In this document: positions 2,307-61,645 of the stretch, piece after piece
Numbering within the stretch: position 1 is the stretch's first letter
Layout: every line of letters begins with the position of its first letter
Assembly: GCA_964016885.1 (NCBI GenBank)
Contig: OZ024754.1
Span: 4,650,001-4,714,000 of the forward strand
Length of the DNA stretch: 64,000 nucleotides
Reading direction: 5' to 3'
Source: Eledone cirrhosa
Taxonomy: Eukaryota
The notes under the pieces: generated by a model
What the model saw: only the letters and a program-made list of their open reading frames with translations
Database searches by the model: none
Told to the model about the DNA's origin: nothing
Position numbers and translations under genes: made by a program

Positions 2307-2420
2307 GTTTTACTGTGTTAAACGTTGTTTTACTGTGTAAAACGTTGTTTTACTGTGTAAAACGTTGTTTTACTGTGTTAAACGTTGTTTTACTGTGTTA
2401 AACGTTGTTTTACTGTGTAA
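2307..2420. repeat. 20-bp tandem repeat AACGTTGTTTTACTGTGT(A/T)A, ~5.5 copies
   Basis: Direct inspection. Confidence 0.95.
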
Positions 2421-2426
2421 ATATAT

Positions 2427-2697
2427 AATTGTTTCTACTTTTGGCACAAGGCCAGCAATTATTCCAGTGTATTACTGGTACTTTATTTTATCGACCCCGT
2501 AAGGATGAAAAGTAAAGTTTACCTCAGCGGGATTTGAACTCAGATCATAAAGAGGCGTAACTCTATGCTACAAAGCATGGCGTCCGACTCTCTACCGATA
2601 CTGCCAATCCACCGCTTGTAAATATATAATTGTTTCTACTTTAGGCACAAGGCCAGCAATTACCCAGTGCATTACTGGTACTTTATTTTATCGACCG
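2427..2697 (-). mobile_element. SINE family 1: full copy (2427-2617) plus partial 3' copy
   Basis: A/B boxes, central GGGGTCGATAAAATAAAGTACCAG domain and GCTGGCCTTGTGCC...AGAAACAATT tail; flanking GTAAATATATAATT repeated. Confidence 0.9.
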
Positions 2698-2982
2698 TAA
2701 ATATATAATTTACCGCCTGTAAATATATAATTGTAGTTTGTATGGTGTGTCTTGTGTAGTTTAAGTCTGTTGTATTTATTTAATTTTATGTTGTAGTTGG
2801 GTAGGGTTATGCGAGAAAAATATTTTAAAGTTATTATTACGTTTCCAAAGCTAACCTTGGCGAGATTTGAACGCGAGATAAAACCTCTTTGATTGTAGGT
2901 TTACTCGATCAGAGGTAACTGTGGTTTAACATGACTAATACTACTACTGCTGCTACTACTACAATTATTATTAACCATTATT

Positions 2983-3352
2983 TTGGCAGTATCGGTAGAG
3001 GGTCGGACGCCATGCTTTCCAGCATAGTTACGTCCCTTTACGATCTGAGTTCAAATCCCGCCGAGGTTGACTTTGCCTTTCATCCTTACGGGGTCGATAA
3101 AATAAATGTACCAGTAATGCACTAGGTAATTGCTGGCCTTGTGCCTAAAGTAGAAACAATTATTTTGGCAGTATCGGTAGAAGGTCGGGAGCCATGCTTT
3201 GCAACATAGAGTTACGCCCCTTTATGGTCTGAGTTCAAATCCCACCGAGGTTAACTTTGCCTTTCATCTTTACGGGGTCGATAAAATAAAGTACCAGTAA
3301 CGTACTGGGATCGATTTAATGGACATTCTCTTCCCAAAAAATTGTTGCCCCA
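2983..3352 (+). mobile_element. Two tandem SINE family 1 copies (2983-3161, 3165-3352)
   Basis: Each copy has TTGGCAGTATCGGTAG...GAGTTCAAATCCC...GGGGTCGATAAAATAAA. Confidence 0.9.
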
Positions 3353-3419
3353 CGCAAAGTACGAAGCGGTATGGATGTTTTGATAGTCGCTAACGAATAT
3401 TAATTTTTTTTATTTAGAT

Positions 3420-3620
3420 ACAAGGAGAGAAAATTTGGGGGAAGAGCAAAATTGATCAAATCAACCCCAGTACTTGACTTGTACTTTATTTGATCAATCC
3501 TGGAGTGGATGAAAAGCAAAGTTGACTTCGTGAGGATTTGACCTGAGTACTTAAATATCTAAAACAAACATTGCAATGGCATTTCTTCCGACGTTCTACC
3601 AATTCAGCTAATCCATCACC
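3420..3620 (-). mobile_element. Diverged SINE family 1 copy
   Basis: GGATGAAAAGCAAAGTTGAC...GGATTTGACCTGAG aligns to the family. Confidence 0.7.
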
Positions 3621-11206: not shown

Positions 11207-11684
11207 TAAGAGTCGTGTGATCATAGAATGACCAAGATCCTCTCATAGAATGACGAAATGAGGTTTATTTTTCAACATAGTCCCTGGGAAGATACAATGA
11301 AGTTATTTAAAAGAGTTGAAATTAATGCATGTAAGATTTCACAGCTCTAGCATCACTTCTTCATAGTCTGACCAAGATACTCTCATGGAATGACCAAATA
11401 AGGTATATTTTTCAGCATAGTCCCTGGAAAGATACAATGCAGTTATTAATAAGAAGCGTTGAATGTAATGCATGCAAGATTTCACCGCTCTAGCATCACT
11501 CCTTCATAGGCAGGCCAAGACACTCTTGTGGAATGACCAAATGAGGTTTATTTTTCAACATGGTCCCAGGAAAGAAACAATACAGTTATTAATAAGAAGA
11601 ATTGAATTTAATGCACGCAAGATTTTACAGCTCTAGCATCACTTCTTCATAACCAGCCTATGATAGTTTCAACCGGCCCTTGTA
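11207..11684 (-). mobile_element. Mariner-type MITE with an internal ~142-bp unit tandemly tripled
   Basis: Terminus TTTCAACCGGCCCTTG-TA; GAGGTTTATTTTTCAACATAGTCCC recurs at ~11260, 11400 and 11543; same family as 12218-12390 and 40998-41924. Confidence 0.7.
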
Positions 11685-11850: not shown

Positions 11851-12217
11851 ACATAAGACATACGTCTTTACATTTTAAGAATCTTTATGTACAATTCGTG
11901 ACAAATCCTTCTTAAGTGATATGCAATTGTTAAATTTCAAACGCACCACATGAAAGTTTCAACCGGAATAATATAATTAGTCTGAAGTTATAACACGCAC
12001 CTAAACGAAGGTTCAATTAACATCTAATAGATTAATTAATTTAGTCTATTAATATCTTAATTAGTGTATAATTTAAATAATTTACATCTCCACTTATGGT
12101 AGTGACGACCCACCGTTGATTTCGACGGCATACCATTCAGTTGATCAATGAAATAAACGTCTACCTCCTTAATATAAAAATCCACATGCTTATTGATCGT
12201 GACGGTTGAATTACTGG

Positions 12218-12390
12218 TACAGTCCATCCGAAGGACTTTTATACAATCAGAGAGAATGGCCCTGGAAGGAAATAATGCAGTTATGAATAGGAAGAATCGA
12301 AATGTATGTCTTAATGTATGTACAATTTCACAGCTCTACCATCATTCCTTCATAGCCAGCCTCTGGACTTTTCGGTCGACTCTTGAGTAT
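12218..12390 (-). mobile_element. Single-unit copy of the mariner-type MITE
   Basis: ATTTCACAGCTCTACCATCATTCCTTCATAGCCAGCC matches the 11.6-kb and 41-kb copies. Confidence 0.6.
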
Positions 12391-12403
12391 ATGTATGTAT
12401 ATG

Positions 12404-12438
<35 letters not shown>

Positions 12439-12463
12439 ATGTATGTATGTGTCTGTATATATA

Positions 12464-12639
12464 CGAGGGCAATCCCAAAAGTAAGGTCTCCTTCCGATAT
12501 TGCAACTTTTCCGTTAAAATCCTGTGGATGGTGCTTCGGGAAACCTCAGGAAGCAAAATGCAGAGAGCATCCAGAGTGATCCGCCGATCTTTGCGCATGT
12601 TTTCCTCGAAAGGAGACCTTACTTTTGGGATTGCCCTCA
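12464..12639 (-). mobile_element. Internally deleted mariner element (28-bp TIRs, TA target site)
   Basis: TIR CGAGGGCAATCCCAAAAGTAAGGTCTCC and its inverse, each flanked by TA. The interior encodes DRRITLDALCILLPEVSRSTIHRILTEKLQYRK, resembling the second HTH of mariner transposases. Confidence 0.9.
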
Positions 12640-12641
12640 TA

Positions 12642-12856
12642 TATGATAACTGCGCGAAATTCGCACTTGGCGGTAGCGTTCAACGGGAGCTCCGTTCTCA
12701 ACGGCTGCCATGCCAAGATTGAGCATCCCAGCGAAGCGCGCGCGTGTTTGTTTGGGAGTGAAGGAAGCACCGATCACAACAGTGTTGCCAACAGCCGTAC
12801 GAACAGTGTCTCTGCGTCCCCATCGCTTTGGAAACCTTACTTTTGGGATTACCCTC

Positions 12857-12857
<1 letters not shown>
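12642..12857 (-). mobile_element. 5' end of the same mariner family (TIR, 5' UTR, transposase N-terminal remnant)
   Basis: Third TIR ends at 12857+TA; minus strand encodes ELPLNATAKCEFRAVI, like mariner N-termini (PAKCEvRsVI). Confidence 0.8.
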
Positions 12858-12945
<88 letters not shown>

Positions 12946-12946
<1 letters not shown>

Positions 12947-13300
12947 CGGGTTGAATCGGAGGTAACCACAGTAAGTAAGGTACTCAATACATAGCAGAGT
13001 ATATATATTCAATTTGATATAGAAATGGCTTCCACGGGTCTAGAACTGTTTCATTCGAAGGAAATCATCAGGAAAGCCCTTCTACAGGGTAACATTGTGG
13101 GCGACAAAACAATACACACTATATTACTTTGCGTCGATGAGTTTGCAGAAGTAAGCTTCTACCTCCTGTATTTATGATTAAACCCTGAACCAAAGAAGAA
13201 CCCTCGCCCATACCGTGATCGTTCATTCTGCTATAAAAGATAATAAACCCTTTCCCAGATCGACACACGATCGTATTTATATAATGAACGACATATTTCA
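12946..13300 (-). mobile_element. Penelope-like element 3' end (family B): ORF remnant, hammerhead (13027-13078), tail
   Basis: Minus strand GGCTTTC-CTGATGA-TTTC CTTC GAAT-GAA-ACAG...CCGT-G-GAAGCC. The tail TATTGAGTACCTTACTTACTGTGGTTAC is shared with other copies; the upstream frame ends ...IINT...HRRKVI*. Confidence 0.7.
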
Positions 13301-14394: not shown

Positions 14395-14497
14395 TATCCC
14401 GGGGACAATCGGGGGTAACCACAGTAAGTAAGGTACTCAATACATAGCAGAGTATAAAATTTAATATAGAAAGGCTTCTACAGGACTAGAACTGTTA
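14395..14497 (-). mobile_element. Truncated PLE family B end
   Basis: GGGGTAACCACAGTAAGTAAGGTACTCAATACATAGCAGAGT...GGCTTCTACAGGACTAGAACTGTT. Confidence 0.75.
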
Positions 14498-14852: not shown

Positions 14853-15054
14853 GTGTGTGTGTGTGTATGTGTGTACTGTCCATCTAACATCATAAATGAT
14901 TCTATATCACGGCAAGAAGTACAAATGGGGGCAATAGTATCAAAGTCCCTTACTCATCAAAAGTCGACTCCCAGAAAAGAAAGGCTTTGAATAGTGTAGC
15001 AATAGTGAGGGCGGTACCCCAGCACGACCCCAAACTCGCCAATTGGAACAAATA

Positions 15055-15168
15055 ATGATTTCTACTTTAAGCACAAGGCCAGCAATTACCCAGTACATTA
15101 CTGGTACTTTATTTTATCGACCCCGTAAAGATGAAGGGCAATGTTAACCTCGGCGGGATTTGAACTCA
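15055..15168 (-). mobile_element. SINE family 1, 3' part
   Basis: Matches the family tail, central domain and B box. Confidence 0.85.
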
Positions 15169-15311
15169 TAATAATAGGGCTTTTCTTCATAGATATGTCG
15201 TAGTTGTGAGTTTGTATATGGGGGCTCGATCTCTGAGTGTGTGTGTAAGTGTGTACACACATATACATATATATATATACACACACACACACACTTACAG
15301 ATATATATATA

Positions 15312-19085: not shown

Positions 19086-19294
19086 ACAGCCACTGCCAAT
19101 CAATGTTCCTTAATTGTTGGCGGTAAGATCAAAGAAAATTATATGCACCTGGAAAAAATCACTTTCTCATATAGATAGGATATGGTGGTGGTGGTGGTGT
19201 GATTGTATTGGCGTGGTCATATATAGCGGTGGTGGTGGTGGTGGTGTGGTAGTAGTGGTAGAGTGGTGGTCATATATAGGTAGAGAGAAAGTAG

Positions 19295-19458
19295 AATAAA
19301 TTGACCCAAGTACGTTACTGGTACTTTATTTTATCGACCCCGTAAGGATAAAAAGCAAAACTAACCCCGGCGGGATTTGAACTCAGAACGTAAAGGGCCA
19401 TAACTCTATGCTGCGTTGCACGTTGTTCGACACTCTACTGATTCTGCCAATCCACCGT
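19295..19458 (-). mobile_element. SINE family 1
   Basis: A/B boxes and central domain on the minus strand. Confidence 0.85.
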
Positions 19459-19705
19459 TCAATAATGATAATGGTTTCTTATATAGAACTAGCGTGTCGA
19501 TAGATAAAGAGTGGAGCAGTGGACACTGTGTTTAGGGGTGCTTGAACACAGGGCCCTGTTTGCCAGGGTGGCCTATCTTCCTGCCAAAAAATGTTTTACC
19601 CCCTTCAGGGCCCAAGTAAAGGGTCTCATAACTTAACTAGCACAGGGCCTCGTCCTAAATCCTGCACTCGCAGTGGTGCAAATATAAAGAAAATAATAGA
19701 ATTAA

Positions 19706-20858
19706 TAAGTTGAGTCGGGAGTTAGAGGATTTGAACACAGAACTAGCGTGTCCATAGAATTAAGTTGAGATGGGAGTTAGAGGATTTGAACACAGAACTA
19801 GCGTGTCCATAGAATTAAGTTGAGTCGGGAGTTAGAGGATTTGAACACAGAACTAGCGTGTCCATAGAATTAAGTTGAGACGGGAGTTAGAGGATTTGAA
19901 CGCAGAACTAGCGTGTCCATAGAATTAAGTTGAGACGGGAGTTAGAGGATTTGAACACAGAACTAGCGTGTCCATAGAATTAAGTTGAGTCGGGAGTTAG
20001 AGGATTTGAACACAGAACTAGCGTGTCCATAGAATTAAGTTGAGACGAGAGTTAGAGGATTTGAACACAGAACTCGCGTGTCCATAGAATTAAGTTGAGT
20101 CGGGAGTTAGAGGATTTGAACACAGAACTAGCGTGTCCATAGAATTAAGTTGAGTCGGGAGTTAAAGGATTTGAACACAGAACTAGCGTGTCCATAGAAT
20201 TAAGTTGAGACGAGAGTTAGAGGATTTGAACACAGAACTCGCGTGTCCATAGAATTAAGTTGAGACGAGAGTTAGAGGATTTGAACACAGAACTAGCGTG
20301 TCCATAGAATTAAGTTGAGACGAGAGTTAGAGGATTTGAACACAGAACTCGCGTGTCCATAGAATTAAGTTGAGTCGGGAGTTAAAGGATTTGAACACAG
20401 AACTAGCGTGTCCATAGAATTAAGTTGAGACGGGAGTTAGAGGATTTGAACACAGAACTAGCGTGTCCATAGAATTAAGTTGAGTCGGGAGTTAGAGGAT
20501 TTGAACACAGAACTAGCGTGTCCATAGAATTAAGTTGAGACGGGAGTTAGAGGATTTGAACACAGAACTAGCGTGTCCATAGAATTAAGTTGAGACGGGA
20601 GTTAGAGGATTTGAACACAGAACTAGCGTGTCCATAGAATTAAGTTGAGACGGGAGTTAGAGGATTTGAACACAGAACTAGCGTGTCCATAGAATTAAGT
20701 TGAGTCGGGAGTTAGAGGATTTGTACACAGAACCATCGAGTTCATAGAATTAATAAGTTGAGACAAGAGTTAGAGGTTTTGAACACAGAACTAGCGTGTC
20801 CATAGAATTAAGTTGAGGCGAGAGTTAGAAGATTTGAACACAGAGCGAGCGTGTCGGT
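19706..20858. repeat. 55-bp minisatellite with one Pol III B-box per unit, ~21 copies
   Basis: Unit AGAACTAGCGTGTCCATAGAATTAAGTTGAG(T/A)CGGGAGTTAGAGGATTTGAACAC; GGATTTGAAC is the reverse complement of GTTCAAATCC. Confidence 0.95.
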
Positions 20859-22922: not shown

Positions 22923-23254
22923 CATGGTGGCTGCCAACTCGTTTTCGAGTACGGCCACTACTTTATATCCATGTAGGAGAACCCCTACCGATGCGCTGAA
23001 CGAGTGTGTCTTTTTAGTCCAGCCAGCGACTTGAAAACTCTGGTACAAACACTACACTTGTGACAATTATTGACACAGTGCTGGGCCCATGGTACCATGT
23101 GAAGACAAGTGCAGAGAGATCTCCAGATATAAAGCAATGCCTGTGCTGTGAAGCTTTTATAGTGAGCAAAGGCACTGCACAAAGCCAGTCCCACTCTCTT
23201 AACCAAGATGATATTTACCAAAAAGAAGAACAAGTCAACATCATTGGATACCAT
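22923..23254 (-). mobile_element. RTE-clade retroelement 3' fragment with C2H2 remnant and (GTAT)n tail
   Basis: CSVCTRVFKSLAGLKRHTRSAH*; near-identical inverted copy at 31507-31839; related short tails at 22345-22385 and 22808-22850. Confidence 0.75.
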
Positions 23255-27155: not shown

Positions 27156-27640
27156 ACTATATGATGTAAACAATATATTAGGTTGTAACATAACTTCATG
27201 CCGTTTTTTTTTAAATAAACAAATTATGACAGCGGCGGGAAATTATGTTACAACCCAATATAGTGCCTCCAGTCTCAGTTCCTTTTATTTATACATGATA
27301 ATATTTGTGCCTTGTTATTTATTATAAACACGATGTCATCACATTTCTCTATATTCAGAGATTTCATTGGTTTAAAATAAATAAGATAGCAAGGCTGGAA
27401 TTATCTCCCCTGATTCGATTATGTTTATATCCGAGGTCGATAAAATAAAGTACCAATCAATCAAGTAGTGGTATAGGTATAATCGATTATATCACCTTGA
27501 CGAAATGTGAATCGCTGTGCCATTGTAAAAAGGTATCATCATCATAAAACTAATATTCTGTTTAAACAGCCAGGTCTTATGTCAATCGACTTTCCCTCCC
27601 CCCGAAATTGTTGGCCTTGTACCTAAATAAGAATGATGAA

Positions 27641-27966
27641 TTGGCAGTATCGGTAAAGGTTCGGTGGCCATGTTTTGAGGCATTGAGTTACGGCCCTTTA
27701 TTATCTGAGTTTAAATCCCGCCGAGGTTAACTTTTCCTTTCATCCTTACGGGGTCGATAAAATAAAGTACCAGTAATGCACTGGGGTCGATTAATCGACT
27801 TTCCCCTCCCCCCGAAAATTACTGGCCTTGTGTCTATATGAGAAACAATTATTATTATTATTATTATTATTTGTATAAGGTCGGTGGTTTGGCAGTATCA
27901 TCAGACACCATGCTTTGCACCATAGTTATGGCCCTTTACGTTCGGAGTTCAAATCCACCGAGGTTA
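27641..27966 (+). mobile_element. SINE family 1 copies (27641-27850 full, 27876-27966 5' part)
   Basis: A/B boxes, central domain and (ATT)n tail. Confidence 0.85.
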
Positions 27967-27989
27967 GCACAATGCTGTTAGCCCAATAC

Positions 27990-29575
27990 AATGCACACTG
28001 TAAAGTGGTACTACTGGTGCCATGATATAATACATCCAGTCCACACTGTAAAGTGGTACTACTGGTGCCATGATATAATACAGCCAGTCCACACTGTAAA
28101 GTGGTACTACTGGTGCCATGATATAATACAGCCAGTCCACACTGTAAAGTGGTACTGTTGGTGCCATGATATAATACAGCCAGTCCACACTGTAAAGTGG
28201 TACTACTGGTGCCATGATATAATACAGCCAGTCCACACTGTAAAGTGGTACTACTGGTGCCATGATATAATACAGCCAGTCCACACTGTAAAGTGGTACT
28301 GCTGGTGCCATGATATAATACATCCAGTCCACACTGTAAAGTGGTACTACTGGTGCCATGATATAATACAGCCAGTCCACACTGTAAGGTGGTACTGTTG
28401 CTGCCATGATATAATACAGCCAGTCCACACTGTAAAGTGGTACTACTGGTGCCATGATATAATACATCCAGTCCACACTGTAAGGTGGTACTGTTGCTGC
28501 CATGATATAATACAGCCAGTCCACACTGTAAAGTGGTACTACTGGTGCCATGATATAATACAGCCAGTCCACACTGTAAAGTGGTACTACTGGTGCCATG
28601 ATATAATACATCCAGTCCACACTGTAAAGTGGTACTGTTGGTGCCATGATGAAATACAGCCAGTCCACACTGTAAAGTGGTACTACTGGTGCCATGATAT
28701 AATACAGCCAGTCCACACTGTAAAGTGGTACTGTTGGTGCCCTGATATAATACAGCCAGTCCACACTGTAAAGTGGTACTACTGGTGCCCTGATATAATA
28801 CAGCCAGTCCACACTGTAAAGTGGTACTACTGGTGCCCTGATATAATACAGCCAGTCCACACTGTAAAGTGGTACTACTGGTGCCCTGATATAATACAGC
28901 CAGTCCACACTGTAAAGTGGTACTACTGGTGCCCTGATATAATACAGCCAGTCCACACTGTAAAGTGGTACTACTGGTGCCCTGATATAATACAGCCAGT
29001 CCACACTGTAAAGTGGTACTACTGGTGCCCTGATATAATACAGCCAGTCCACACTGTAAAGTGGTACTACTGGTGCCCTGATATAATACAGCCAGTCCAC
29101 ACTGTAAAGTGGTACTACTGGTGCCCTGATATAATACAGCCAGTCCACACTGTAAAGTGGTACTGTTGGTGCCATGATGAAATACAGCCAGTCCACACTG
29201 TAAAGTGGTACTACTGGTGCCCTGATATAATACAGCCAGTCCACACTGTAAAGTGGTACTACTGGTGCCCTGATATAATACAGCCAGTCCACACTGTAAA
29301 GTGGTACTGTTGGTGCCATGATGAAATACAGCCAGTCCACACTGTAAAGTGGTACTACTGGTGCCCTGATATAATACAGCCAGTCCACACTGTAAAGTGG
29401 TACTGTTGGTGCCATGATGAAATACAGCCAGTCCACACTGTAAAGTGGTACTACTGGTGCCATGATGAAATACATCCAGTCCACACTGTAAAGTGGTACT
29501 GTTGGTGCCATGATATAATACAGCCAGTCCACACTGTAAAGTGGTACTACTGGTGCCATGATGAAATACAGCTGG
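27990..29575. repeat. 48-bp minisatellite CCAGTCCACACTGTAAAGTGGTACTACTGGTGCC(A/C)TGATATAATACAG, ~33 copies
   Basis: Direct inspection; this explains the 531-aa and 534-aa ORFs. Confidence 0.97.
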
Positions 29576-31506: not shown

Positions 31507-31839
31507 ATGGTATCCAATGATGTTGACTTGTTCTTCTTTTTGGTAAATATCATCTTGGTTAAGAGAGTGGGACTGGCTTTGTGCAGTGCCTTTGCTCACT
31601 ATAAAAGCTTCACAGCACAGGCATTGCTTTATATCTGGAGATCTCTCTGCACTTGTCGTCACATGGTACCATGGGCCCTGCACTATGTGTCAGTAATTGT
31701 CACAAGTGTAGTGTTTGTACCAGAGTTTACAAGTCGCTGGCTGGACTAAAAAGTCACAGTTGTTCAGCGCATCGGTAGGGGTTCTCCTACATGGATATAA
31801 AGTAGTGGCCGTACTCGAAAACGAGTTGGCAGCCACCAT
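31507..31839 (+). mobile_element. RTE-clade 3' fragment, inverted near-identical copy of 22923-23254
   Basis: Both translate MVSNDVDLFFFLVNIILVKRVGLALCSAFAHYKSF... Confidence 0.8.
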
Positions 31840-35514: not shown

Positions 35515-36170
35515 AGCCAGTAATCGGTAGAGCGTCGGACATGTTTTACGGCATATAGTTACGACCCTTTACGTTATGAGTTCAAATCGCACCGAAGTTA
35601 GCTTTGCCTTTCATCCTTGAGGGGTCTGGTCGATAAATAAAGTACCAGTAATACGCTGGGTCAGTTTAACCGACTTTCCTTCTCCCTCCCAAAATTGCTG
35701 GCTTTGTGCCTAAATCAAAAATCATTATCATTAGGATAATATTATTGTTAATATTATTATTGATATTATTGATAATATTATTATAATTATTATTATTATT
35801 AAGGGTAGAGGGTCGGATGCCATGTTTTGCAGCATAGAGTTATGGCCCTTTATGGTCTGAGTTCAAATCCGGCCGAGGTTAATTTTGCCATTCATTTTTA
35901 CGGGGTCGATAAAATAAAGTACCAGTAATACACTGGGATAATTGCTGGCCTTGTGCCAGAAGTAGAAACAATTATTGATATTATGACGGTGGATTACAAA
36001 TATCGGTAGAGCGTCGGACAATAGGCGTTGCGGCATATTGTTATGGCCCTTTACGTTCTAAATTCAAATCGCGCAGAAGTTAGTTTTACCTTTCATATTT
36101 ACAGGTTCGATAAAACAAAGTACCAGTAACGCATTGGGGTCGATTTAAGCGACTTTCCCCTCCTCCGAAA
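35515..36170 (+). mobile_element. Three tandem SINE family 1 copies
   Basis: GTTCAAATC-like B boxes at ~35580, 35860 and 36062, each followed by the central domain. Confidence 0.85.
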
Positions 36171-36217
36171 TATATACCAGGATAGAACCAGTTTTAAACT
36201 AGTTAGACTATTACTCA

Positions 36218-36419: not shown

Positions 36420-36505
36420 CATATCTGAAGAGGTGTCGATAAAGAGTCGGGATCCGATCGCCTGATCAAACCCGAGCTGATCGATATCGAAACAATTGTA
36501 ATATG
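36420..36505 (+). ncRNA. Canonical type I hammerhead ribozyme with extended stem II
   Basis: CAUAU-CUGAAGA-GGUGUCGAU...AUCGAUAUC-GAA-ACAAUUGU-A-AUAUG; GUA site at 36498-36500; AATAAA at 36507. Confidence 0.85.
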
Positions 36506-36767
36506 AAATAAAGTCTCATAACAAACTACGAATCTGACTTCCTATTATCACAATATACATACAGACATACAGACACTTTAAATTAAAAAACAGACTTAAA
36601 GACTCGCGTTAAACCCCTATAATTCTCTCATCTATAACCCCTGATCATTGTTCCTTGGTTACTGGAATCAACTCCTTACCAATTCCAAAGTTGAATTCCT
36701 TGATATAAATTGGCATCTTTTAGATTTGGCTTTTTTCTTTGTTTCTACAACGACTATATATCTGGTG

Positions 36768-39007: not shown

Positions 39008-39440
39008 ACCGCCAAGGTTAACTTTGCCTTTCATCCTTACGGGGTCGATAAAATAAAGTACCAGTCACGCACTGGGGTCGATTTAATCGACTTTCCCCTC
39101 CCCCCAAATTACTGTCTTGTGCCTATACTAGAAATCATTATTATTATTATTATTGCGCGGTGGATTGGCAGTTTCGGTAGAGGGTCGGACGCCATGCTTT
39201 GACGCATAGAGTTACGGCCCTTGCCATTCTGAGTTCAAATCCCACCAGTGTTAACTTTGCCTTTCATCCTTATGGGGTCGATAAAATAAAGTACCAGAAA
39301 TACACTGGATAATTGCTGGCCTTGTGCCAAAAGTAGAAACAATTATTATTATTATTATTATTGCGACATAGAGTTGCGGCCCTTTACGTTCTGACTTCAA
39401 CTCCCGCCGAAGTTAGCTTTCCCTTTCATCTTTACGGGGG
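39008..39440 (+). mobile_element. Three SINE family 1 copies or fragments with (ATT)n tails
   Basis: Full copy at 39156-39345. Confidence 0.85.
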
Positions 39441-39939
39441 TGATTAATAATAATAGCGAGTCATGAGCGAGGTATTTGCAAAACCGTTTTGGTGGTAGTA
39501 GCTGTTGTGGTGATGTTAGCAGTAGTAGTGGTGGTGGTGGTGGTGGTGGTGGTATTATTGATGGTGGTGGTGGTAGTAGTAGTAGTAGTAGTTGTAGTAG
39601 TGATGGTGGTAGTAGTAGTTGTAGTAGTGATGGTGGTAGTAGTAGTAGTAATGGTGTTAGTAGAAGAAAGAACTAAAGGAGAACAGGTGTTTGAAATTAA
39701 ATGTTATTTGAGGACTAATCCCATGGACCCTAAAATGCAATTGGTAGGGTCCTGAAGGAGTTCTAGTAAAACACTTAGGGGTCTATGTTATTGCTGGGCT
39801 TAATAACTAACCAATCTGTAGACATGTGTGATAGCAACTGGAATTGGTAAATGAAGAAATCTTATCAAAGTTCTCCATCTCTCAATCTCTTGCTCGGCCG
39901 ATCTCTCGTTGATGGTGTGCAACGTGTGGTAGCTTAGTG

Positions 39940-40997: not shown

Positions 40998-41924
40998 TAG
41001 CGTCGGTTGAAACGTTCATAGGATGATTATGAAGGAATGATGCTAGAGTTGTGTAATCTTGCATGCATTAATTTTAACTCGTATTAAAACCTACAATGTT
41101 TCTTTCCAGGAACTTTGTTAAAAAATAAACCTCATTTGGTCATTCCATGAGAGTATCTTGGCCATAGTCTGACTATGAAAAAGTGATGCTAGGGCTGTGA
41201 AATCTTGCATGCATTAATTTTAACTCGTATTAAAACCTACATTGTTTCTTTCCAGGAACTTTGTTAAAAAATAAACCTCATTTGGTCATTCCATGAGAGT
41301 ATCTTGGCCATAGTCTGACTATGAAAAAGTGATGCTAGGGCTGTGAAATCTTGCATGCATTAATTTTAACTCGTATTAAAACCTACATTGTTTCTTTCCA
41401 GGAACTTTGTTAAAAAATAAACCTCATTTGGTCATTCCATGAGAGTATCTTGGCCATAGTCTGACTATGAAAAAGTGATGCTAGGGCTGTGAAATCTTGC
41501 ATGCATTAATTTTAACTCGTATTAAAACCTACATTGTTTCTTTCCAGGAACTTTGTTAAAAAATAAACCTCATTTGGTCATTCCATGAGAGTATCTTGGC
41601 CATAGTCTGACTATGAAAAAGTGATGCTAGGGCTGTGAAATCTTGCATGCATTAATTTTAACTCGTATTAAAACCTACAATGTTTCTTTCCAGGAACTTT
41701 GTTAAAAAATAAACCTCATTTGGTCATTCCATGAGAGTATCTTGGCCATAGTCTGACTATGAAAAAGTGATGCTAGGGCTGTGAAATCTTGCATGCATTA
41801 ATTTCAACTCTTCTTATTAGTCCCTGGAAAGAAACAATGCAGTTATTATGTTAAAAAATAAACCTCATTTGGTCATTCCACGAGAAGATCTTGCTCAGCT
41901 TATAAACCTTTAAGCCAACCCTCG
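40998..41924 (+). mobile_element. Mariner-type MITE whose interior is amplified into a 146-bp tandem array (~6 units)
   Basis: TIR-like ends TA-TAGCGTCGGTTGAAA and GCCAACCCTCG-TA; GCATGCATTAATT recurs at 41061, 41207, 41353, 41499, 41645 and 41791. Confidence 0.8.
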
Positions 41925-46820: not shown

Positions 46821-47168
46821 ATATATAACATATTTCCATTCATATCTGTGGTTGACTTAACTCCCACCACTACCTCATCCACCTAACCGCCCCCCCCCCT
46901 CTCTATTTCACACCAGTTCTGCTCCTCTCTCAATATCCATTCGCCACATCCACCTCACCCCCTCCACCTCACCCCCTCTACCTCACCCCTCCACCTCACC
47001 CCCTCCACCTCACCACCTCACCGCCTCCACCTCACCACCTCCACCCCTCCACTATCATCATTTACACTTTTTAAAGACCAAATATCTACTCCTTTACCTC
47101 TCTCTCTCTCTCTCTCTCTCTCTGTAAGTATGTATGTATATATATATATATATATTTAAAATAGAAAT

Positions 47169-47219
47169 GGCTTCCACAGGTCTAGCACTGTTTCATTCGG
47201 GAGAAATCATCATGAAGCC
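47169..47219 (-). mobile_element. PLE family B fragment, hammerhead with mutated core (AUGAUGA, GUG)
   Basis: Aligns to 44971-45021. Confidence 0.7.
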
Positions 47220-47293
47220 TATGTATTATATATATAGAGAGAGAGGCGGGTGAGATGGCTGGATATATATATCTCTTTCTATCCATCTCATCC

Positions 47294-56870: not shown

Positions 56871-56940
56871 TTTAAACTATATATATAATATTATTCAAAA
56901 TATTAATAAATGAGAAATATTATCATAACCAAAGTATATA

Positions 56941-56999
56941 TTGTATTATACATATTTCAAAGGTACATTGGTGTTTCAGTATGTTTTCATCAGATAAAA
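56941..56999 (-). ncRNA. Type I hammerhead motif (downstream member of tandem pair)
   Basis: UUUUAU-CUGAUGA-AAA...UUU-GAA-AUAUGUAU-A-AUACAA; core intact, stems imperfect. Confidence 0.65.
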
Positions 57000-57101
57000 T
57001 ATATGAGAGATTGGATATGCGGTATACCACTAAGGTTCTTGAATCTTCAATTCCTGTAGTAGCATTAATAAATGGAAAATATCTTTATAATACCATATTT
57101 A

Positions 57102-57155
57102 TTTATTATACGTATTTCAAGGACACTAAATTTTAGTGTGCTTTCATCAGATAAA
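57102..57155 (-). ncRNA. Type I hammerhead ribozyme (upstream member of tandem pair)
   Basis: UUUAU-CUGAUGA-AAG(C)ACACUAA AAU UUAGUGU(C)CUU-GAA-AUACGUAU-A-AUAAA; AUA site. Confidence 0.8.
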
Positions 57156-57167
57156 ATATAATATTTT

Positions 57168-57268
57168 GTGTTAAGATATTGACATACCTTAGCGTAAACT
57201 TGATAGTATAAGCCATTAGCGAGCTTATACTATTAAGACTATGCTAAGGTATGTCAATATCTTAACAC
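57168..57268. repeat. ~100-bp hairpin immediately upstream of the tandem hammerheads
   Basis: GTGTTAAGATATTGACATACCTTAGC...GCTAAGGTATGTCAATATCTTAACAC. Confidence 0.9.
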
Positions 57269-57271
57269 CAA

Positions 57272-57274
<3 letters not shown>

Positions 57275-57319
<45 letters not shown>

Positions 57320-60910: not shown

Positions 60911-61220
60911 TTATGTCACTGTTGTTGTTGTTATCCGATCCGACTGCATAACATCTTGTATATGCCGGCTGAAGACTTGTGAGTGATATATTGATAGATG
61001 TAAGCTATACGGAAGCCCAATGACTGGATCAAACCAGTAATTCTAAGCCCCAGCCTTTATCACATATTGTGTCAGACTAATTCTATCTGAGAATTAGTTA
61101 TATAAAGGAGGTATACTCAGCCACTTAGCACATTAATTCACGAATTGGATGTTCTGTTGATTGAAGAATTGGGTGCTGCTCGTCGAAACCAACGGAGGAT
61201 CCATCATCAGATTATTCAAT

Positions 61221-61645
61221 ATTATAGTGTTTTATTTTATCATCCCTGTAAGGATAAAAGGCAAAATTAACCTCGGTGGGATTTGAACTCAGATCAGTTA
61301 GGGCTTTTATGATCTGAGTTCAAATTCCGCCGAGGTTAACTTTGCCTTTCATCCTTACGGGGTCGATAAAATAAAGTACCAGTAATGCACTGGGACAATT
61401 GCTGGCCTTGTGTCAAAAGTAGAAACAATTATATATTTACACAGTAAAACAACGTTTAACACAGTAAAACGAGGTCCACTCTAAGGAAAATCGTCCACCA
61501 AATTCTTAATAACTAATCAATAGAAACCTGAAACTTATAACCAAGTAATTTAATCTCTAACTAAAATTATGACATCTCAAATACCAGTAATACACTGGAA
61601 TAATTGCTGGCCTTGCGCCAAAAATAGAAGCAATTATAGTGTTTT
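61221..61645 (+). mobile_element. Composite SINE insertion with 5' inversion, captured flank and 13-bp direct repeats
   Basis: ATTATAGTGTTTT at 61221 and 61633; inverted SINE part 61234-61296; 61431-61582 matches 2195-2426 in reverse. Confidence 0.75.

Follow-up and report, generated by a model that had tools for sequence, protein, structure and literature searches.

Tandem hammerhead-bearing repeat ends with an inverted duplicate in Eledone cirrhosa DNA: a probable Penelope-like insertion

Hammerhead motifs and flanking features of the locus

The locus described here lies within a 64-kb stretch of Eledone cirrhosa DNA, the whole of which we refer to as the window. A motif scan identified two type I hammerheads, HHR1 and HHR2, both on the minus strand and with AUA cut triplets at 57107 and 56947, respectively (Table 1). 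Each carries the type I core, CUGANGA...GAAA...NUH, with an open stem I. The core of HHR1 is made up of CUGAUGA (57150-57144), GAAA (57118-57115) and the palindrome UACGUA, followed by UA at 57108-57107. Its stem I has 5 bp, a 3-nt bulge and then an extension; stem II has 3 bp, a C.C mismatch and 7 bp; and stem III is palindromic. HHR2 has CUGAUGA at 56993-56987, GAAA at 56958-56955 and UAUGUA, again followed by UA (56948-56947), and in the copy present here stem I contains a U.C mismatch and the outer part of stem II is broken. Both motifs have an A-U pair (A10.1-U11.1) at the base of stem II and C.C at stem II position 4.

When the locus was dinucleotide-shuffled 5,000 times, a descriptor of the type I hammerhead never found the motif. 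The positions and the shared strand given for the two motifs in a preliminary description of this DNA hold. Applied to the non-tandem part of the window (25,848 bases), the same descriptor returned six type I motifs, compared to a shuffle mean of 0.01. The hammerhead models of Rfam did not match the locus at the gathering score, nor at an E value of 10. Aligned with their tails, HHR1 and HHR2 are 77% identical over 102 nt (blastn, E = 3e-13), which bears out the earlier proposal that their downstream flanks are related. Self-comparison found no third copy of the unit in the 64-kb window.

Table 1. Features of the locus, and copies of a second hammerhead family, in window coordinates
Feature	Position	Strand	Remarks
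HHR1	57097..57160	-	Type I hammerhead; predicted cut after 57107
HHR2	56936..57004	-	Type I hammerhead of a sister subfamily; predicted cut after 56947
Piece predicted from double cleavage	56947..57106	-	Tail 1, spacer and 5' part of HHR2
Inverted head-to-head duplicate of the unit 1 upstream part	57223..57275	+	53-nt arm; 5 mismatches to 57161-57213
Inverted-junction loop	57214..57222	.	9 nt; from the hairpin fold
Unit 1 upstream part (other hairpin arm)	57161..57213	-	Family sequence; covered by other copies
Unit 1 3' tail	57064..57096	-	14 nt shorter than the unit 2 tail (alignment)
Unit 2 upstream part (spacer)	57005..57063	-	Low-copy by read depth
Unit 2 3' tail	56888..56935	-	Ends at the (TA)n run (sequence); TA runs make up the loose ends before 56888
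(TA)n run at the 3' boundary	56877..56887	.	Likely target site (sequence)
Second hammerhead family, complete copies	45015-44970; 63002-62958	-	Descriptor/blastn
Second hammerhead family, G at the cut site	13071-13026; 47165-47220	-	Latter also changed at the first core base
Second hammerhead family, truncated copy	14460-14496	-	

A hairpin of about 115 nt, with 53-nt arms, mismatches at 5 of 53 positions and a 9-nt loop, lies just upstream of HHR1. The hairpin noted in the preliminary description is real (z = -14.4), but its helix is about 50 bp rather than 100 bp. Read in the sense of the element, both arms point outward from the loop, one toward HHR1 and the other into a TA/TG microsatellite. 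The inverted duplicate aligns by blastn at 86% over 116 nt; the arm at 57223..57275 stops just before the point at which stem I would start, and the sequence continues into the microsatellite. Reads that bear the letters of the opposite arm run on into the ribozyme (joint 57129-57275). In sequence, the hairpin is made by an inverted, head-to-head duplication of upstream sequence belonging to the element itself. The mismatches between its arms are private decay, because read variants at 57238, 57242 and 57202 remove arm mismatches.

We also considered whether the hairpin could be a microRNA or a MITE-like element beside hammerheads that are chance matches in AT-rich DNA. The hairpin does have sub-threshold matches to several miRNA models in Rfam (53.8 bits against a gathering score of 100), which we rejected as generic. 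Chance is difficult to reconcile with the shuffle result and with compensatory changes in the stems (see below). Moreover, the arms are family sequence that lies directly upstream of the ribozyme in other copies, and the arm mismatches are private. This explanation is accordingly very improbable.

The two units start at similar distances upstream of their cores (63-72 nt for unit 1 and 70 nt for unit 2), and direct homology between their upstream parts is not significant, with 1,694 of 2,000 shuffles scoring as well. Read variants at 57022/57023 nevertheless yield the GACATACC motif of the hairpin arm within the upstream part of unit 2. Other copies run past 57060 into sequence unlike that of the window. 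Both outer flanks of the locus are microsatellite, and no clear target-site duplication can be read there.

Joints to the opposite strand were also seen in other copies at the HHR1 cut or within 3 nt of it (57107 to 57158, and 57104 to 57211/57214), each in 1-6 reads. These may be inversions that arose from the cut site, or alignment artefacts of the self-complementary stem I.

Selection on the fold and decay of this copy

Stem II has the same plan in both motifs: 3 bp, the C.C mismatch and a further stem. The earlier view that stem II has diverged is right for its letters but not for its structure, in which two positions have changed on both sides and are compensatory. Variants in reads from other copies mostly preserve pairing. 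Among the 40 variant rows shown (97 more lie outside this set, and the rows do not display whether partner variants occur together in single reads), 15 fall at paired positions. The pair is kept or restored by the variant itself in 11 of these and jointly with a listed partner variant in 2, and it is broken in the remaining 2. The pair-breaking variants are at 57124, whose partner row is absent from the rows shown, and at the loop-closing position 57133. Covariation of the hammerhead stems is thus seen as 13 of 15 compatible paired-site variants, together with the two both-sided changes between HHR1 and HHR2. The 26 core positions are free of variants in the 40 rows shown (P = 0.03-0.04). Stem III is a palindrome in every form seen, and the variants at 56951 and 57112 preserve it. 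The both-sided changes in stem II and the pair-preserving variants among reads show that the ribozyme fold has been under selection.

The stem III palindromes of HHR1 and HHR2 can also pair with each other, and all 8 of the 8 hybrid pairs can form. By this modeling, HHR1 and HHR2 are ribozymes of the dimer type.

Several pairs of HHR2 are disrupted here and intact in other copies. Reads from other copies have U-A in place of the U.C mismatch at 56943 (767 of 807 and 856 of 902 reads) and G-C in place of the A.C mismatch at 56982 (441 of 453 and 552 of 566 reads). Two further outer pairs of HHR2 are broken in this copy, and read variants restore them. The predicted fold of HHR2 has an energy of -3.5 kcal/mol and the wrong structure. 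Within the precursor, the monomeric active folds lie 8-11 kcal/mol above the minimum and the dimeric fold 12.7-14.3 kcal/mol above it, in calculations that ignore tertiary contacts and Mg2+. As modeled, these energies would lower the odds of cleavage without excluding it. The present copy has acquired private changes and would likely cut weakly or not at all.

Amplified sequence and the origin of the locus

To describe what is amplified in the genome, we used reads that align to 408 bases of the locus: 1,607 and 1,595 contigs from two runs on one sample, and 3,978 and 4,160 RAD reads from two runs on other samples. Depth was highest on the ribozyme cores and tails. The depth of the tail or the HHR1 core was 209-1,072 times that of the spacer end across the four runs, a ratio in which summed contig depth is not equal to copy number, cut sites (AATT at 57049 and 57129) shape the RAD depth, and the rarity of tandem forms is overstated because spacers less than 80% alike would not align. 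Loose ends on the 3' side were AT/TA-rich and heterogeneous, with an agreement of 0.57-0.66 at 57064 in about 1,590 reads per RAD run. Those on the 5' side were conserved, with an agreement at 57164 of 0.87-0.90 in the RAD runs and 0.72 in the contig runs. Dispersed 3' ends of retroelements give such a difference between the two sides, whereas arrays would be expected to agree on both. No joint from the spacer back to a tail, as an array would contain, is present among the 11 joints listed. Among the matches listed (16 of 3,240 pieces), contigs that carry HHR2 and the spacer leave the sequence of the window at 57057-57069. Together, these results indicate that the amplified part of this high-copy family is the ribozyme with a short 3' tail, not the 160-nt unit. 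The single point that would argue against arrays built with a different spacer is the heterogeneity of the 3' ends.

The piece between the two predicted cuts (57106-56947) is indeed 160 nt long, as had been calculated from the same ribozyme anatomy, and has a GC content of 27%. Closed into a circle, it has a predicted fold of -15.7 kcal/mol with a z score of -0.26, and 106 of 300 shuffles fold equally well. TRF called no tandem period of about 160 nt at the locus, either with the settings of a recent preprint (Li, Clavereau and Pollet 2026, bioRxiv 10.64898/2026.07.22.740005) or with looser ones. The open reading frame pieces of the locus have no match in Pfam, in agreement with the earlier statement that it lacks coding capacity. 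The locus is non-coding, low in GC and without an LTR, PBS or PPT, the latter two judged by eye.

The preliminary description had put forward the two hammerheads as a candidate retrozyme or source of circular RNA. In that case, the locus would be a non-LTR retrozyme dimer left from two successive monomers of about 160 nt in an old array; a heterodimeric hammerhead would cut the transcript twice, ligation would turn the 160-nt piece into a circle, and a Penelope-like element (PLE) enzyme would copy it. The locus shares several properties with metazoan non-LTR retrozymes as characterized in the cited parts of Cervera and de la Pena (2020, PMC7229834) and the preprint: it is non-coding and low in GC, with dimer-competent type I hammerheads on the same strand at a spacing of about 160 nt. 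Its two complete cores, the size of the piece (within the range of 150-450 bp) and the 8 of 8 hybrid stem III pairs, which give a nested and feasible dimer fold, would all suit a retrozyme. So would the similar offsets of the units and the GACATACC motif that read variants make common to both; these also fit a monomer with a fixed length of about 160 nt and thus count against a PLE insertion. Moreover, the passages of the preprint used here treat retrozymes as derivatives of PLE pseudo-LTRs (pLTRs), which places a retrozyme close to the explanation that we favor.

However, the locus differs from the retrozymes in the cited parts of PMC7229834 and the preprint in that it is not a homogeneous tandem, its monomer appears not to be amplified and its circle is not highly self-paired. 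It falls outside the preprint's working definition of a retrozyme because TRF finds no like tandem units, the two being 77% alike over 102 nt, and because HHR2 is unstable, its fold being weaker than the -5 kcal/mol cut-off stated in the preprint. The rarity of the spacer, the missing spacer-to-tail joint among the 11 listed and the heterogeneous 3' flanks also argue against a retrozyme, as does the cost of the dimer fold, in a model that leaves out tertiary contacts and Mg2+. In addition, the portion of the preprint cited reports no in vitro cleavage for 8 of the 9 dimers that it predicted in Xenopus. We therefore consider the proposed retrozyme or circular RNA source unlikely.

The alternative named in the preliminary description, that of tandem PLE pLTR pieces, is favored by the partial tandem, the inverted junction, the TA target and the asymmetry between 3' and 5' flanks. 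The locus is most probably a single, decayed insertion made by a PLE enzyme, and consists of two 3' ends from a high-copy repeat family, each with a hammerhead, arranged head to tail with an inverted 5' duplicate between TA-rich microsatellites. In such an event, the PLE endonuclease/reverse transcriptase would nick an AT-rich target and copy the short 3' (pLTR) end of the RNA of one subfamily (unit 2, 57063-56888). It would then jump to RNA from a sister subfamily, again at the 3' end (unit 1, 57213-57064), and fold-back or inversion would end the insertion and leave the hairpin. In the source elements, the ribozyme may act as a dimer through its 8-nt palindrome and trim the precursor RNA.

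The inverted duplicate, the partial tandem, the longer tail at the outer end and the (TA)n target fit the published structure of PLE insertions. At this locus, 5'-truncated 3' ends form a partial tandem beside a copy inverted head to head, at an AT-rich/(TA)n target, all hallmarks of such insertions. Endonuclease-positive PLEs, as described in the portions of Craig et al. (2021, PMC8557442) and Arkhipova et al. (2013, PMC3846280) drawn on here, likewise show 5'-truncated partial tandems and (TA)n targets, with an inverted head-to-head copy at the 5' end and extra tail at one end. Head-to-head inverted junctions are reported there to be frequent (PMC3846280). In contrast to the PLEs in these portions, the locus is only about 390 bp long and lacks an ORF, its tandem parts come from different subfamilies, its tails differ by 14 nt (versus 30-40), its inverted copy stops before the ribozyme, and no target-site duplication is readable.

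The palindromic stem III, the U-rich 5' flank and the AU-rich 3' flank fit the minimal hammerhead (min-HHR) consensus of PLEs. According to the sections of Cervera and De la Pena (2014, PMC4209133) cited here, the genomes of many animals contain PLE pLTR hammerheads by the thousand, and a dimer design with a palindromic stem III is described for metazoan and PLE hammerheads. The same sections propose that PLE hammerhead dimers trim precursor RNA, with low activity in vitro. The motifs at this locus resemble those hammerheads in being type I, with a palindromic, dimer-competent stem III and a longer than usual stem II. They also share U-rich and AU-rich flanks and the presence of many dispersed copies in several families per genome. 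They depart from the min-HHR consensus in these sections, which has an extra base after A9 and G10.1-C11.1, since they have A10.1-U11.1 and no extra base. The C.C loop at stem II position 4, the 8-nt palindrome, the long stem I, the AUA triplet and the lack of a linked ORF in the window are further differences from the hammerheads described there.

None of the 136 ORF pieces of the window matches a reverse transcriptase or GIY-YIG family in Pfam, and thus the link to an autonomous PLE would be one of anatomy only. The core motifs of the family are absent from the supplement of PMC8557442, and scans with exact patterns gave no matches in viral contigs, prokaryote genomes or metagenomes. Penelope elements are reported to be abundant in coleoids. 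No paper on hammerhead repeats of cephalopods was found in the largely open-access literature searched.

A single event with a template jump is not distinguishable from two separate insertions, which we count against the single-event reading. If a short, SINE-like hammerhead retroposon had inserted twice, independently, side by side at an AT-rich hot spot, the tandem arrangement and the 160-nt spacing would be accidental; the mobilizing element may be a PLE or another non-LTR element. The compensatory differences that place the units in different subfamilies are consistent with such insertions. So are the contigs, among the matches listed, that carry HHR2 and the spacer as far as 57057-57069 before leaving the window sequence, and the window contains at least four other complete hammerheads as solo motifs. 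However, the junction at 57064/57063 is not a TA run, unlike the outer ends, and one PLE-type event accounts more simply for the shared orientation, for the inner tail being the shorter one and for the terminal inversion. Independent insertions thus seem rather doubtful, somewhat more so than a retrozyme dimer.

A more speculative proposal, to which we give still slightly less weight, would make the locus a nascent retrozyme. The template jump of the PLE insertion would have joined the ends of two diverged PLE subfamilies with hammerheads that can still pair with each other through the hybrid 8-bp stem III, so that a heterodimeric ribozyme would cut read-through transcripts and release a circularizable 160-nt RNA. 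The family would then be an undescribed, very high-copy hammerhead variant with A10.1-U11.1, the C.C loop and AUA.

If the locus is a decayed PLE end, it is ordinary in itself, hammerhead-bearing PLE ends being a known kind. Modest value lies in the family, a structural variant whose natural covariation is good, and in the locus, which could serve as it stands to learn whether unlike hammerheads can cleave together as a heterodimer. Were the circle released, the locus would directly exemplify the route that has been proposed from PLE pLTR to retrozyme. In the portion of PMC8557442 cited, the function of PLE hammerheads is described as still open.

Other repeats of the window

The 64-kb window contains at least six complete hammerhead motifs. 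Another type I hammerhead family, unrelated to the first, occurs there as five scattered copies, and a short AT-rich tail follows each of them (Table 1). A solo type I hammerhead is present on the plus strand at 36420-36510, with a 57-nt stem II region, a palindromic stem III (CAAUUG) and a predicted cut after 36500. Solo hammerhead-like motifs were also seen on the minus strand at 38830-38785 and 21800-21755, the latter with a GAUC palindrome.

Homogeneous satellites occupy 11230-11651 (143 bp x 3), 19706-20855 (55 bp x 21), 27994-29572 (48 bp x 33) and 41017-41810 (146 bp x 5.4), and the type I descriptor found no hammerhead in these four. Remnants of a Tc1/mariner-like element, with a repeated terminal sequence and a weak match to HTH_Tnp_Tc3_2 (E = 0.028), are located at 12178-12950. 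A 331-bp repeat, present at 22926-23254 and 31507-31837 in opposite orientations and 97% identical, ends in a C2H2 finger that is sub-threshold in Pfam. No homologue was found, and the repeat looks like the 3' end of a young LINE. Finally, many copies of a short interspersed repeat, 75-96% alike and in both orientations, are found at 2419-3555, 15050-15180, 19278-19479, 27637-27968, 35518-36171, 39009-39479 and 61211-61638, and probably represent a SINE or MITE family.
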